Assembly (NCBI GenBank): GCA_964503265.1
Contig: CAZCYO010000005.1
Location: 1-37,150, forward strand
From: an uncultured Gammaproteobacteria bacterium
Lineage (GTDB): Bacteria > Patescibacteriota > Microgenomatia > Levybacterales > UBA12049
Direction: 5' to 3'
Length of the DNA stretch: 37,150 nt
Position 1 is the first letter of the stretch. The number at the start of each line of letters is the position of its first letter. Under the pieces are notes generated by a model. That model did no database searches and was not told the origin of the DNA. It saw nothing but the letters and a program-made list of their open reading frames with translations. Position numbers and translations under genes: made by a program. Shown here in pieces: positions 8,161-26,651 of the stretch.

Positions 8161-8595
8161 TTATTTATAGTGCGATTTGATTTGGAACAAGATATAGAAT
8201 GCAATCGCAGCCCAGATAACAGTTGAAATTACATTACTAACTGAAAGTGTTAGTAACGATGAAGCGATGTTTACTACTTCTGACCAGAAGAGAAGTACCC
8301 ATCCACCCATCAGTCTTTTTTGTAGTTTTGGATATGCCATAAGCATCATCACACTAGCTACAACTGATGCAACTCCACTAACGAGTAACATGGTTGTGTT
8401 ACGAACTCCACCAAACATACCAAGTGGTGATACGCCAACTAAACTAATTCCAGCGAGCACTCCGAGTACTCCAAAAATAAGTGCGATCCATGGAGTAATA
8501 TTGACGAGTGTCTCTCGTGCATTTTCAGGAAGTTTTGGTGCGTTTTTATACACATCTTCAAGCATCGCGATTATATCAGTATTATTTTTTGCCAT
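8161..8595 (-). CDS. Hypothetical four-TM membrane protein
   Basis: 144 aa, hydrophobic; GGGGTGA SD-like motif upstream; own terminator. Confidence 0.75.
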   Translation of the reverse strand: MAKNNTDIIAMLEDVYKNAPKLPENARETLVNITPWIALIFGVLGVLAGISLVGVSPLGMFGGVRNTTMLLVSGVASVVASVMMLMAYPKLQKRLMGGWVLLFWSEVVNIASSLLTLSVSNVISTVIWAAIAFYILFQIKSHYK

Positions 8596-8598
8596 TTA

Positions 8599-8679
8599 TT
8601 ATTTCACCCCCCTTCGCCCCGCGTAACTGTAAGCGAAGTGGGGTCTCGCTCCTACAGTGATTTTTGTAAGGTTTTTCAT
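8599..8679 (-). other. 26-aa uORF (MKNLTKITVGARPHFAYSYAGRRGVK) containing a CCCCACTTCGC-family palindromic element
   Basis: Translated by hand; in frame with, and 84 nt upstream of, the 8595 start; element at about 8611-8645. Confidence 0.45.
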
Positions 8680-16696: not shown

Positions 16697-16726
16697 GCTT
16701 TTCAACATTTCTTTATAGTCACGATA

Positions 16727-17650
16727 TCACATATTAATTTTTTGGCACTTCTGGCAAATGAATGTCCCTCTCCCGCCTACTACGATTCGCTCGATTGGTG
16801 TTTTGCACCGAAAGCATGGCTTTCCCGTTTGTTTATACACCAGAAAGTGATTCTGATATCCCCCCTTTTCACCAAGTACATTCACATAATCTCGCTCACT
16901 CGCTCCACCGACTTTGATCCCCAGTGTTAATACTTTTTCGATAGACTCAAATAGTGCAGCAGTTTCTTTCTCTTTCAGTGAATTTGCTTTTCGAAGAGGG
17001 TGAATACGACTGTCCCACAGCGCGTCATTGGCATAGATATTCCCAATCCCCGCGATTTTCTGTTGGTCCATCAGTACTTGCTTTATCGGCGCTTTGGAGT
17101 GTGAGAGAATATCGCTAAAATCCTTCACCGCTAAATCTCGTAAAGGCTCTTTCCCTAGTTTGCTAAAAAAACTCATGTCTTGTAACTCAGCACTCTTAAC
17201 TACCTTGATCCACCCAAACTGCCGAATATCATTAAAATAAAGCACAGACTCCTGACTACTATCTCCTAACTTCTGTCTTCTAAACATAAATATGACATGA
17301 GTATATTTATTAGGCAAATCATTTGTTTTATCTTGAGAAATATGAACATTCACAGGCGGATATATGTTCTCTCCCCCTGATACTTTTGATACCCTTGATA
17401 CTCCTGATACATATCTAAAAATCAGCTGCCCCGTCATCTTCACATGAATCGTAATACTGTAGTTATTCGAAAGGTCTATCCCGAGCCCCTTTCCAAATCG
17501 TCTCACTGCAAGTACTTCACCCCCAAGGACATCTGCTATCTCACCAGAAAAGATTCTCGGAAGTACTACATGGATATTCGTAAGCGTTAACCCTACTAAA
17601 TGCTTTTCAAGTCCTCGTCTGATTGTTTCCACCTCTGGTAGCTCAGGCAT
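16727..17650 (-). CDS. mutM: Formamidopyrimidine-DNA glycosylase / AP lyase
   Basis: MPELPEVE N-terminus, RFGK, HVKMTG, AGIGNIYAND, C-terminal CFRC...CQKC zinc finger; AGGAG SD. Confidence 0.96.
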   Translation of the reverse strand: MPELPEVETIRRGLEKHLVGLTLTNIHVVLPRIFSGEIADVLGGEVLAVRRFGKGLGIDLSNNYSITIHVKMTGQLIFRYVSGVSRVSKVSGGENIYPPVNVHISQDKTNDLPNKYTHVIFMFRRQKLGDSSQESVLYFNDIRQFGWIKVVKSAELQDMSFFSKLGKEPLRDLAVKDFSDILSHSKAPIKQVLMDQQKIAGIGNIYANDALWDSRIHPLRKANSLKEKETAALFESIEKVLTLGIKVGGASERDYVNVLGEKGGYQNHFLVYKQTGKPCFRCKTPIERIVVGGRGTFICQKCQKINM

Positions 17651-17662
17651 ACTGTATCTCCT

Positions 17663-17734
17663 TTATTGTTCTTGCCCCTCGTAGCCTTGGCGGAGGCTGG
17701 GCGAAGTGGGGTCAACTTCAGGTAATTCTGGCAT
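17663..17734 (-). other. 23-aa ghost-start uORF MPELPEVDPTSPSLRQGYEGQEQ, in frame with mutM
   Basis: TGGTATACT 7 nt upstream; first 7 codons encode the same residues as mutM; contains a palindromic element at about 17672-17713. Confidence 0.7.
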
Positions 17735-17772
17735 AACACTTAGTATACCATGCCTAAGCTCAGCTTATAGTT

Positions 17773-17926
17773 TTGCATTCTTTACTCGTTTTTGCTATTA
17801 TCTACACCTCACACTTTCCTAAGCTTCCTTTTTGCTGGAATGCTTATGTCGTGAGCACTTTTACAGCGCGTTATAGTCATTGACTCCAGTAGGAAGACAG
17901 ATTTCTGTCTCTCTTCTGGAGTCAAT
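17773..17926 (+). promoter_or_regulatory. Sigma70 promoter and structured leader of the 17963 gene
   Basis: TTGCAT(17773)-N17-TATTAT(17796); hairpin ATTGACTCCAG(17879)...CTGGAGTCAAT(17926) with inner AGACAG/CTGTCT. Confidence 0.55.
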
Positions 17927-17962
17927 TGAAATGTGGTCGACTACCATTGAAAGGAGCGATCT

Positions 17963-18445
17963 ATGGACACGATCGAGACTGGTACGTATATCCCTGTTGC
18001 TGGCATTGAACGTCTGTCTGAAGAGAAACTTAACATCTTGGCGATGAATATCTGGAGGACGGGACATGCGTTCTTCGTGGGTGAACACCCAGAAGATAGG
18101 ACACCCTACAAGTTTCCAGATGGTCTCTTCCGGCTCTACATTCCCAGCTACATGGGAATCATGCATGATGACATCATCCAGCAGATTGAGGCCGTTGGTC
18201 TCACCGTTATTACCAAGGAGAGCATGCGGGTAACTCTGGCGGACCTGTTCCTCGGGGAGAAAAAACAAGCTGAAACTCTTGGTGCATCCCTCGTTAGGGA
18301 TTTGCCAGGAACAATGCTTCTCCCATGTGGAAGTGGTGTCTATCTGATCATCTACCCTAGCTACTTCACGAAACCGGTGATCGAAAGGATGCTTGGAACA
18401 GTAGCTGTTCTGGGCTTTGAAGCCCTGGATCCGATCAAGGAGTAA
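17963..18445 (+). CDS. Hypothetical protein (accessory)
   Basis: AAAGGAG SD; 160 aa; followed by an SD-led neighbour. Confidence 0.65.
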   Translation: MDTIETGTYIPVAGIERLSEEKLNILAMNIWRTGHAFFVGEHPEDRTPYKFPDGLFRLYIPSYMGIMHDDIIQQIEAVGLTVITKESMRVTLADLFLGEKKQAETLGASLVRDLPGTMLLPCGSGVYLIIYPSYFTKPVIERMLGTVAVLGFEALDPIKE

Positions 18446-24915: not shown

Positions 24916-25873
24916 CTTCAGTGAGAGTCTCCGAAGCTCGACTCAAACATTTTTCTCTACTTTCTTTAAGTACGCGATCGACATAGTCAGGATTTGCTTC
25001 AAGTTCACGTCTTTTTTCCTGAAGTGGCGCAAGTTCTGTATAAATTGCTTCAGCTAACTCCTGCTTCATATCCCCGTATCGAATTCGTTTCTCTTCATAA
25101 GCCTGAGTATACCTCTGATACATCTCCTCTGTTCCAAACAATTTTAGCATCGTAAATAGATTCGCAACTCCTCCGCGCTGTGGGATTTGCCCTCCCTCAA
25201 CACCACTATCTGTCGGTGCACTCGCGAGTCGCTTTTTAATCGTCTCTAAATCGTCCATGAGCGTAATATAGCTTCCTTCAACAGACTTACTCATCTTTCC
25301 CTCCCCTGACAGTGACGGAACATATTCCCCTGTGGTTGCAAAACGAGTTGGCTCTGGAAATGTCTCACCAAACATACTATTAAATTTCCGTGCTATTTCT
25401 CGTGTTACTTCTAAATGTGGTTCTTGGTCAATTCCGACCGGTACAAGTTCTGCTTTATACAGCATAATATCTGCTGCCATAAGCACTGGATAATAGAGCA
25501 GTCCCATGTTTACGTATTTGGGGTGCTGCGCTTTTTTATCTTTATATGTCGGCAGATCCTCAAGTCGAGATACTGGATAAATTGTACCCAAATAGTACGC
25601 AAGTTCCATATGCTGTGGCACATGCGACTGCACTTCAAGTAAACATTTTTCTGGATCAAGCCCTGCCGCTAAATAATCAATCACAATATTTCGAATATTT
25701 GCCTGGAGAGCACTTGGTTCATACGGCGTTGTAATCGCATGCAGATCCACGACAGAGAAAATACAATCATACTCATCCTGAACAGCCAGCATCCCCTTCA
25801 CCGCCCCAAGGTAATTTCCCAGATGCAACCGATTCGTTGCTCTAATACCAGAATAAACCTTCTTTTTTATCAT
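24890..25873 (-). CDS. trpS: Tryptophan--tRNA ligase
   Basis: HLGN (HIGH), YPVLMAADI, VPVGIDQEPH, KMSKS. Confidence 0.97.
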   Translation of the reverse strand: MIKKKVYSGIRATNRLHLGNYLGAVKGMLAVQDEYDCIFSVVDLHAITTPYEPSALQANIRNIVIDYLAAGLDPEKCLLEVQSHVPQHMELAYYLGTIYPVSRLEDLPTYKDKKAQHPKYVNMGLLYYPVLMAADIMLYKAELVPVGIDQEPHLEVTREIARKFNSMFGETFPEPTRFATTGEYVPSLSGEGKMSKSVEGSYITLMDDLETIKKRLASAPTDSGVEGGQIPQRGGVANLFTMLKLFGTEEMYQRYTQAYEEKRIRYGDMKQELAEAIYTELAPLQEKRRELEANPDYVDRVLKESREKCLSRASETLTEVKQKMGLA

Positions 25874-25944
25874 ACTTTTTCCTTTCTTTCCTGCTTGCCC
25901 TTCCGTAGCTTTATGCGAAGGAGGGAATATACTTTCTTTTTCAT
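25870..25944 (-). other. 24-aa ghost-start uORF MKKKVYSLLRIKLRKGKQERKEKV; its stop overlaps the trpS ATG (ATGA)
   Basis: KKKVYS matches the trpS N-terminus MIKKKVYSG; contains a palindromic element at about 25894-25925; TTGCGG-N17-TACAAT at 25982-25954 upstream. Confidence 0.7.
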
Positions 25945-25949
25945 ATCGC

Positions 25950-26651
25950 TCATATTGTAGTATTTTTATAATATCTCCGCAATAAAGACTGGGCCAATAT
26001 TTCAAGAGAATTGTATACAGGCACTTTATATTTAGTAGGAAAAATTAATGGAAGCTCAGTACAGCCAAGAATTATTCCCTGTGCACCTTTTTCAACAAGT
26101 ATATCTGCTAGTCTAACAAGTAACTTTTTTTGAGAAGGAGATGTTTTTCCAGCGATAACACTTCTTATCACTGATTCAATTGTTGAGAATTCTTCATCTC
26201 CTACTGAGATAACTTCAATACCTTTATTAATAAGCTCAGTGTGGTAAATCTTTGATCGAAGTGTAGATGGAGTTCCTAAAATTCCTACTTTTTTAATTGA
26301 GTCATTTGTAACTATTTTAACAACTTCGGTAATCATCGAGACAAAAGATACCACTGAGCATCTTTGTAATTCAGGTAATAGAATATGCGCAGTATTACAA
26401 GCAATTGATAAACAATCTAACTCAAGATGCTGTAACTGTTTAACTCGCGTAATGAGCATTGTTAGTGCTTTTTCTTTAGCATCTTCACTCGATATGAAAT
26501 CCGGCACCGGAATAGACTGAAGTATAATTTCAGGAAAGTCATCATTATGCTTTGCTCCAAAATCTCGAATTGCTAACTCAATAAGAAGTTTATATAAATA
26601 TCCTGATGCTTCAGGTCCCATTCCTCCTAGTATTCCAATTGCTTTTTTCAT
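25950..26651 (-). CDS. Aspartate/glutamate racemase family protein (PLP-independent)
   Basis: IGILGGMGP, IACNTAH and ILGCTELP catalytic cysteine motifs. Confidence 0.92.
   Translation of the reverse strand: MKKAIGILGGMGPEASGYLYKLLIELAIRDFGAKHNDDFPEIILQSIPVPDFISSEDAKEKALTMLITRVKQLQHLELDCLSIACNTAHILLPELQRCSVVSFVSMITEVVKIVTNDSIKKVGILGTPSTLRSKIYHTELINKGIEVISVGDEEFSTIESVIRSVIAGKTSPSQKKLLVRLADILVEKGAQGIILGCTELPLIFPTKYKVPVYNSLEILAQSLLRRYYKNTTI

Follow-up and report, generated by a model that had tools for sequence, protein, structure and literature searches.

Why should a bacterial gene be preceded by a second copy of its own first codons, which encodes the same peptide but spells nearly all of it differently? 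The question is raised by the mutM (fpg) gene on contig CAZCYO010000005.1 (assembly GCA_964503265.1), of which positions 1-37,150 were analysed; this stretch of 37,150 nucleotides (nt) is called the window below, and all coordinates are window positions. The host is a low-GC bacterium of the candidate phyla radiation (CPR), with Levybacteria and Microgenomates as its best-named relatives. The mutM product is a full-length Fpg protein that starts with MPELPEVE, carries the Pfam domains Fapy_DNA_glyco, H2TH and zf-FPG, and reaches 250.7 bits against the NCBIfam equivalog NF002211 (cut-off 212); with the N-terminal Met-Pro-Glu, the N-domain, H2TH and the zinc finger all present, it belongs to the Fpg/MutM family. 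Loci and contigs used for comparison are designated by L numbers (L175-L185 being viral contigs from IMG/VR), proteins by P numbers and sequencing runs by X numbers.

A sequence-only reading of this DNA had described an upstream open reading frame (uORF) that repeats MPELPEV, with six codons recoded, 84 nt before mutM, and every position of that description was confirmed. The upstream copy, referred to here as the ghost, reads ATG CCA GAA TTA CCT GAA GTT (17734-17714), and the working start reads ATG CCT GAG CTA CCA GAG GTG (17650-17630), followed by GAA ACA. Six of the 21 nt are changed between the two, one in each codon after the ATG, without altering any amino acid. Their ATG codons (17734 and 17650) are 84 nt apart and in frame, and only 61 nt lie between the two 23-nt copies. 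After GTT the ghost frame continues as GAC CCC ACT TCG CCC AGC CTC CGC CAA GGC TAC GAG GGG CAA GAA CAA TAA, the stop codon standing 12 nt before the real ATG, from which it is separated by AGGAGATACAGT, and abutting an AGGAG motif located 7 nt before that ATG. The element through which the uORF runs had been called palindromic; it is indeed a hairpin inside the uORF (repeat E in Table 1), built of a 6-bp stem with a conserved loop and not of a long palindrome. A scan for further genes with a re-encoded N-terminus, which the sequence-only reading had proposed, gave an excess over controls within the window: when the N-terminal hexapeptides of the 37 window genes were searched for at 6/6 identity in the 200 nt upstream, two genes (mutM and trpS) were found, against none of 1332 non-self gene/upstream pairs, which places the duplication of the mutM start beyond chance.

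Table 1. Features of the mutM and trpS leaders and of the mutM coding sequence.
Feature	Position	Strand	Basis or remarks
mutM/fpg gene, 307 aa	16727..17650	-	Pfam, NCBIfam equivalog; synteny with relatives conserved
Hypervariable loop of the Fpg N-domain, (GTATCANNG)x4 encoding VSGVSRVSKVSG, four 9-nt tandem repeats	17375..17410	-	alignments
Working mutM start, respelled second copy of the first 23 nt, ATGCCTGAGCTACCAGAGGTGGA	17628..17650	-	sequence
Purine-rich tail, 20 nt, AACAATAAAGGAGATACAGT	17651..17670	-	TAA at 17665-17663, AGGAG at 17662-17658
E, copy of a 41-nt hairpin repeat, CCCCACTTCGCC CAGCCTCCGCC AAGGCTACGAGGGGCAAG	17671..17711	-	dispersed related copies
Ghost uORF, 23 codons, MPELPEVDPTSPSLRQGYEGQEQ + TAA, in frame with mutM	17663..17734	-	sequence
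Ghost start, ATGCCAGAATTACCTGAAGTTGA, first 23 nt of the ancestral, putatively leaderless mutM	17712..17734	-	identical to the uninterrupted allele in X5, X8 and X13
Extended -10 element TGGTATACT (tggtatact), followed by the 7-nt spacer aagtgtt before the ghost ATG	17742..17750	-	sequence, conservation
trpS ghost layout	25870..25959	-	TACAAT 25959-25954, N9, ghost ATGAAAAAGAAAGTATATT 25944-25926, E, tail, real ATG

Which of the two mutM starts is ancestral had been left as a question, and both the alignment of relatives and a set of contigs with an empty site point to the upstream one. About 170 related mutM loci were compared. In six relatives (L082, L083, L166, L167, L168 and L169; MutM 61-73% identical, gene order conserved) the gene begins with TGnTATACT, 7-10 nt and ATG CCN GAR, with neither a Shine-Dalgarno motif nor a second start. 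In L081, which encodes the nearest protein relative (P0002, 83% identical) and shares the insertion, TGnTATACT stands before the ghost, and L167 and L168 have DNA upstream of mutM that is homologous to the ghost's upstream region. This distance from -10 element to ATG, conserved in eight sequences, predicts a leaderless transcript; a simple sigma-70 -35/-10 scan did not call this promoter, and the case for it rests on conservation. Such a start would be in keeping with the rest of the window, where 30 of the 37 genes lack a Shine-Dalgarno-like motif within 20 nt of the start, so that the genome looks largely leaderless, and where many of these 30 genes carry a TATAAT-like -10 box at a distance of 6-10 nt from the start codon. 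Among the few window genes that are Shine-Dalgarno-led are mutM, at its new start, and the variable neighbour of mutM.

Empty-site alleles were found in three metagenome runs (X5, X8 and X13) from two studies. The X5 and X8 contigs, which come from different studies, match positions 17712-17915 with one or two mismatches, and in them ATGCCAGAATTACCTGAAGTTGA is joined directly to AACAATTAGACGCGG or AACAATTAGACGCGGACTTGAAAAGCAC, giving an uninterrupted gene written in the codons of the ghost. The ghost agrees with the empty allele at all of its 23 nt, the flanks agree with it at about 99%, and the 30 nt following the start copy show only three differences from the empty allele. In the X13 contig (404 nt), 17712-17760 and 17257-17362 are connected by 223 nt, against 349 nt in the window, which implies that the 84-nt block and a 42-nt loop insertion are both missing there. 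The N-terminal coding part of this contig failed to align at a threshold of at least 80%, both flanks being 95-99% identical, and relative to it the diverged stretch reaches about 290 nt into the mutM coding sequence. By these comparisons the 84-nt block appears to be an insertion polymorphism placed after base 23 of the old gene, and the upstream MPELPEV appears to be the original leaderless mutM start, still behind its extended -10 element. The sequence-only reading had put an insertion at codon 8, which the contigs locate after the second base of that codon, and had supposed that a replacement 5' end was brought in; the second start does sit in the 84-nt block that the empty alleles lack. 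The exact filled allele was returned, among sequencing runs, only in the source sample. The best 80 genome-contig and best 80 metagenome-contig matches to MutM are 32-46% identical, and among the matches listed none has a second mutM start except L132, described below. The contigs examined included neither an allele with ghost, linker and start that lacks E, nor one with linker and start that lacks the ghost.

Within the block, E appears to be a mobile, structured hairpin repeat. Relatives of it occur in the trpS leader of the window, twice in L081, in L088 and in 11 viral contigs; runs X1, X4, X6, X7 and X8 yielded contigs in which the copies have sharp ends and the flanks are unrelated. Thirteen aligned copies share the invariant loop CTTCGC..A.GCT.CG, a 3' CAAG and a 6-bp stem that is paired in 89.7% of cells, with one pair being C-G in five sequences and G-C in five; the covariation score was reached by none of 500 shuffles, on an alignment of 13 sequences only. 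The mutM copy folds at -14.8 kcal/mol (z = -1.7). In having several copies, sharp ends, unrelated flanks and a conserved secondary structure, E behaves as a dispersed repeat. No target-site duplication flanks the inspected copies, Rfam returned nothing at the element at E-values up to 10 (the only hit in the whole window being a tRNA), and none of ten scanned small open reading frames (ORFs) of the window (100-166 aa) is a partner transposase, RAYT, TnpA or nuclease.

The dispersed part is the 41-nt hairpin only, joined in one case by about 10 nt of the tail, and the replacement start is specific to the gene. That case is an X6 contig from another locus, in which E up to AACAATAAAG aligns over 37 nt with five mismatches and is followed by AGA ATG AAA AAG AAA TTA CCA CAG, so that this much of the tail may move along with the hairpin. 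An E copy of the mutM type at another locus of other organisms was also present in X7 (contigs aligned to 17661-17712). In the 11 viral contigs (L175-L185; 43-67% GC; consensus CCCTGCTTCGCTAAAGCTWCGCAGGGCAAG) E often lies directly after TGA or TAA and 0-14 nt before ATG, and L181 and L185 carry two copies each, about 495 nt apart. Six of the 10 distinct viral copies are followed, 0-41 nt on, by an ORF that starts with ATG and is 88 codons or longer, often with a Shine-Dalgarno motif in between. This placement suggests that hairpin, Shine-Dalgarno motif and ATG, in that order, form the usual context of E.

The trpS gene provides a second case with the same architecture. Its ghost reads ATG AAA AAG AAA GTA TAT T and is followed by an E copy of 32 nt (25925-25894), a 20-nt purine-rich tail (25893-25874) and the real start at 25873, which reads ATG ATA AAA AAG AAG GTT TAT TCT; the TGA of the uORF overlaps the real ATG. 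The real start contains an extra Ile codon, giving MIKKKVYS instead of the MKKKVYS of relatives. L174 has a leaderless trpS start spelled like the ghost and an X13 contig has a leaderless trpS start spelled like the real copy, and thus each of the two trpS copies looks like the natural allele of a different lineage. The ghost ends at the junction after base 23 in mutM and after base 19 in trpS, with E 20 nt before the real ATG in both. The trpS copy of E recurs in 10 other contigs with unrelated flanks.

An independent mutM ghost was observed in L132 (1413-1503; Ga0210006_1005893), a relative at about 35% identity. It consists of 16 diverged codons MPELPEAETTVRDLKK that start 2 nt after the stop codon of a response-regulator gene, and it is followed by a different hairpin, AACCGAGCACATAAAATTTATGTGCTTGGTT; mutM itself starts 88 nt further downstream, in another frame.

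The L081 locus informs on the fate of the ghost peptide. There the ghost encodes MPELSDV, 19 extra nt shift the frame, TAA has become GTA, and the uORF ends 8 nt past the A of the real ATG. Peptide and frame having decayed in this way, the ghost peptide is not under selection. The same allele was found in runs X4 and X7 and in contigs of the RNA runs X10 and X12, which still contain the block, so that nothing indicates its removal at the RNA level. In the annotation, the relative's gene (L081 270-1277) is called as a 335-aa Fpg (P0002) whose N-terminus is extended by 28 residues. In the L081 ghost a change of GAA to GAT gave rise to an ATG in frame, and the stop codon TAA is gone. The extension is in all likelihood an artefact of gene calling, and the protein as annotated would be without the free catalytic proline. 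Compared over 16700-17930, the window and L081 form a mosaic in which blocks of about 100% identity alternate with blocks of about 65-70% inside one gene, a pattern that suggests frequent short-patch recombination between diverged strains.

With moderate confidence, we favour the view that the 5' end of mutM underwent a hairpin-associated replacement by foreign or allelic DNA, spread by recombination, which left a leaderless uORF behind. The donor would be a diverged relative with a leader composed of E, a Shine-Dalgarno motif and ATG, and the block would most likely have entered by recombination, carrying in its respelling as ordinary synonymous divergence between lineages. All six synonymous sites are changed but the flanks remain about 99% like the empty allele, which a fresh local duplication or target-site duplication cannot explain; saturated synonymous sites next to near-identical flanks can be explained by a copy that evolved under protein constraint elsewhere and was then imported, and the continuation of the block into the diverged coding stretch of about 290 nt likewise fits import by recombination. 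The ghost would owe its perfect state to having been, until recently, the functional start of the recipient itself, and not to selection on its peptide. When 67 unrelated mutM starts are compared, the distance seen most often is 6 nt, the same as between ghost and real copy.

Several points weigh against this view. A donor allele in which E and the tail lead into ATG CCT GAG with no ghost was not found in the contigs examined. The junction lies exactly at the 5' end of E in both genes, which an accidental illegitimate join does not predict; together with the position of E, 20 nt away from either real start, this favours a mechanistic role of the hairpin. The 6 nt that follow E (AACAAT in mutM, equal to codons 8-10 of the empty allele, and CAGGAA in trpS) match the native continuation of the ghost, which suggests that E lies inside a longer ghost and that two events took place; similar bases also follow E at other loci and so may belong to the element, which makes this evidence ambiguous. 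The contigs of RNA runs may be DNA carry-over and mark no 5' end, and the divergence of the X13 allele was deduced from a failed alignment and not from the sequence itself. We regard it as a fair question whether the hairpin's own machinery caused the duplication of the 5' end, and lean slightly towards doubting it; alternatively, the hairpin may only have travelled in the leader of the donor, or may have landed later in the ghost.

The rival that comes closest to that idea is an element-coupled 'self-healing', in which the hairpin, or a nuclease or recombinase acting on it, targets the first 20-25 nt of leaderless genes and the same event installs a Shine-Dalgarno motif and a start, both copied from a donor that has the element. 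Such a process would resemble homing and mirror, at the 5' end, the mitochondrial mORF hybrids discussed below, with the nuclease gene now lost or encoded elsewhere. It would account for two of 37 genes sharing the same repeat family, the same layout and the same 20-nt distance from E to ATG, for the junction at the exact 5' end of E, and for the location of E directly 5' of start codons elsewhere, and a hairpin-specific single-strand nuclease family tied to natural transformation has been published (PMC11893778). We nevertheless judge it unlikely: none of the ten scanned small ORFs, including the 160-aa neighbour of mutM, matches nuclease or recombinase families, no such gene lies between ghost and start in the roughly 170 loci, a gene-specific replacement start cannot belong to a generic element, insertion and rescue would have to be simultaneous in the essential trpS, and the mechanism is undefined. 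A second rival is an old local tandem duplication of the promoter-proximal 40-45 nt. In that scenario the downstream copy diverged while constrained at the protein level, its promoter copy became the Shine-Dalgarno motif, the ghost was refreshed by gene conversion from empty alleles and E landed later. A weak resemblance of the linker AGGAGATAC to the promoter ATGGTATAC (6 of 9 positions), the bases of native continuation that follow E and the mosaic state of the locus speak for it, but it has to contend with synonymous saturation at all six sites beside flanks 99% like the empty allele, with a diverged stretch that extends about 290 nt into the gene, beyond the repeat, and with the presence of E in both ghosts, which it leaves unexplained; we consider it improbable.

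Two further explanations concern the ghost itself. That its ORF is a selected device (a leader peptide or attenuator, a functional peptide or a take-off site for ribosomal bypass) could be argued from the end of the uORF lying near the real start in all three variants (12 nt before it in the window mutM, 8 nt past its A in L081, overlapping in trpS) and from the last ghost codon being synonymous with the matching real codon (GTT/GTG and TCC/TCT). We hold it to be very improbable. Peptide and frame are lost in L081. For an attenuator, neither leader has a terminator-like hairpin with a U tract and the trpS uORF has no Trp codon; for a programmed translational bypass, there is no stop after the would-be take-off codon and the independent downstream start with its own Shine-Dalgarno motif makes bypass unnecessary. 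The RNA-run contigs, in keeping the block, give no sign of its removal from the RNA. As to the sequence-only reading's own counter-hypothesis, a truncated Fpg/Nei paralog, MPELPEV is found family-wide, so that any fpg or nei fragment would encode it; since the upstream copy matches the empty allele without a single difference in 23 nt, stands behind an orthologous promoter and finds no counterpart in the 1332 control pairs, a paralog stump or a chance match can be set aside with near certainty, and the upstream copy is orthologous.

A number of simpler candidates were tried and rejected. A tandem duplication of just the first 84 or 43 nt would leave similarity beyond codons 7-10, and there is none; a target-site duplication does not agree with differences that are only synonymous and at saturation level; and mutagenesis by a diversity-generating retroelement does not agree with changes that hit A and T alike. 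An assembly chimera was dismissed, as three runs contain the junction and no 31-mer is common to the ghost and the real copy. Attenuation of trpS by Trp was likewise discarded, there being neither a Trp codon in the uORF nor a terminator.

Returning to the favoured replacement of the 5' end, the locus would work as follows. Transcription would still start from the old promoter, at or near the ghost AUG; ribosomes would load on this 5'-terminal AUG, read the 23-codon ghost ORF through the hairpin and stop at the UAA abutting AGGAG, and MutM would be made 12 nt downstream by re-initiation, by Shine-Dalgarno-led initiation or by both, with a free N-terminal proline. Fpg needs this free proline, which is the catalytic nucleophile once Met has been removed, and the in-frame stop matters because a fusion protein would lack it. 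The Shine-Dalgarno site of mutM is unpaired in the centroid fold, and the whole-leader folds are no better than those of shuffled sequence (z = +0.44 and +0.46). The geometry kept in the window mutM, in L081 and in trpS would allow the translational coupling that the sequence-only reading had offered as its alternative.

Several known systems resemble parts of this arrangement. Lambdoid prophages in icd and islands in tRNA and tmRNA genes supply a replacement for the gene end that they interrupt, and they are alike in that the target gene is left intact through a diverged duplicate of the interrupted end. They differ in having an integrase, att sites and kilobases of DNA and in using 3' ends, whereas at mutM no integrase gene, att repeats or element body was found between the duplicates. 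The comparison with integrases that restore their target, drawn in the sequence-only reading, therefore holds insofar as an interrupted start has been replaced, and fails insofar as there is no integrase and the dispersed part is just the 41-nt hairpin; the mobile gene that it had envisaged between the two starts is present neither here nor in the roughly 170 related loci.

A published precedent is found in the mitochondrial mORF gene hybrids (atp6 of Allomyces macrogynus; atp6, atp9, cox2 and nad3 of Glomus), in which the native end agrees with that of a close relative, and the end that came with the insertion has diverged but only synonymously (PMC3630166). As at mutM, a gene end is present twice, the displaced piece is native and the working piece is diverged at synonymous sites, and the working end was read as horizontally acquired together with the inserted element. 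The mORF hybrids differ in that a 3' end is duplicated and a LAGLIDADG or GIY-YIG endonuclease ORF lies between the copies. The mutM case concerns the 5' end of a bacterial gene, has only a 41-nt hairpin and a Shine-Dalgarno motif between the copies, and turns a leaderless gene into one with a uORF and a Shine-Dalgarno motif; it shows the sequence pattern of the mORF hybrids with no homing-endonuclease ORF between the copies and no larger version in the roughly 170 loci.

As a repeat, E is comparable to REP/RAYT elements, IS200/IS605-derived PATEs, Rickettsia palindromic elements and the Neisseria NTS/Ssn system (PMC11893778) in being a hairpin of about 30-41 nt with a conserved loop, sharp ends, many copies with unrelated flanks and no visible target duplication, and it shares with the Rickettsia palindromic elements that it is tolerated in frame inside a protein loop. 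It is distinguished from these families by its unrelated sequence, its strong preference for positions just 5' of start codons, the fact that no partner enzyme was found, and its range over genomes and viral contigs of 43-67% GC. Leaderless uORFs and 5'-terminal upstream AUGs of Escherichia coli (PMC4965119) and mycobacteria (PMC4633059) also place an AUG at the predicted 5' end ahead of a Shine-Dalgarno-led gene, and such AUGs can load ribosomes and may modulate the downstream gene; the one at mutM would differ in being the fossil start of the very gene that it precedes. Homology-facilitated illegitimate recombination in naturally transformable bacteria (PMC3240628), with a homologous anchor on one side and an illegitimate join on the other, would add foreign DNA beside a resident copy, but under it one would not expect two genes to have the same hairpin at their junctions. 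Full-text literature searches turned up no account of elements of this kind, or of ghost starts, in CPR bacteria.

Other repeats were noted in and around the gene. The hypervariable loop of the Fpg N-domain, which carries tandem repeats in the window, contains E in frame as PLRQGFEGQA in P0002 (L081, 600-630) and P0012, an insertion of the type known from Rickettsia palindromic elements; L088 (1732-1762) likewise has E in frame in this loop, and the loop is empty in P0004, P0005 and P0007. This loop, located between beta strands, is an insertion hot spot. A hairpin at 8605-8646 (minus strand) has the 13-nt GACCCCACTTCGC in common with E, but its 3' arm, GCGAAGGGGGG, is fully complementary. The hairpin is followed after 9 nt by the ATG of a gene for a 144-aa membrane protein (8161-8595) with no Pfam match, upstream of which a weak resemblance of MKNLTKI to MAKNNTDI was seen. 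Between mutM and a divergent, Shine-Dalgarno-led gene of 160 aa (17963-18445; no family match) lies an inverted repeat with 23-nt arms that are 87% complementary (17879-17926). At this repeat the window and L081 cease to be homologous, and on its far side the two strains have different Shine-Dalgarno-led genes; the repeat looks like the border of a variable cassette.

If the favoured reading is true, mobile hairpins together with recombination between strains would offer a mostly leaderless genome a route to gain leaders, Shine-Dalgarno sites and uORFs, and the locus would be a bacterial 5'-end counterpart to the hybrid genes made by mitochondrial endonucleases. A respelled conserved peptide could then arise with no selection acting on it, which calls for caution in the discovery of uORFs and small proteins. 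The hairpin family itself would be common to CPR bacteria and viral contigs and placed before start codons, with neither function nor enzyme described. More tentatively, CPR and related genomes and their viruses may harbour an undescribed class of tiny hairpin elements at translation starts, whose entry into the first 20-25 nt of a leaderless gene would spare the gene, being mechanistically coupled to a new Shine-Dalgarno motif and to first codons copied from a donor with the element. Such a class of start-site hairpins would steadily convert leaderless genes into uORF-coupled, Shine-Dalgarno-led ones, would amount to homing driven by a nuclease or by the hairpin with no resident nuclease gene, and would move short foreign coding stretches between lineages.

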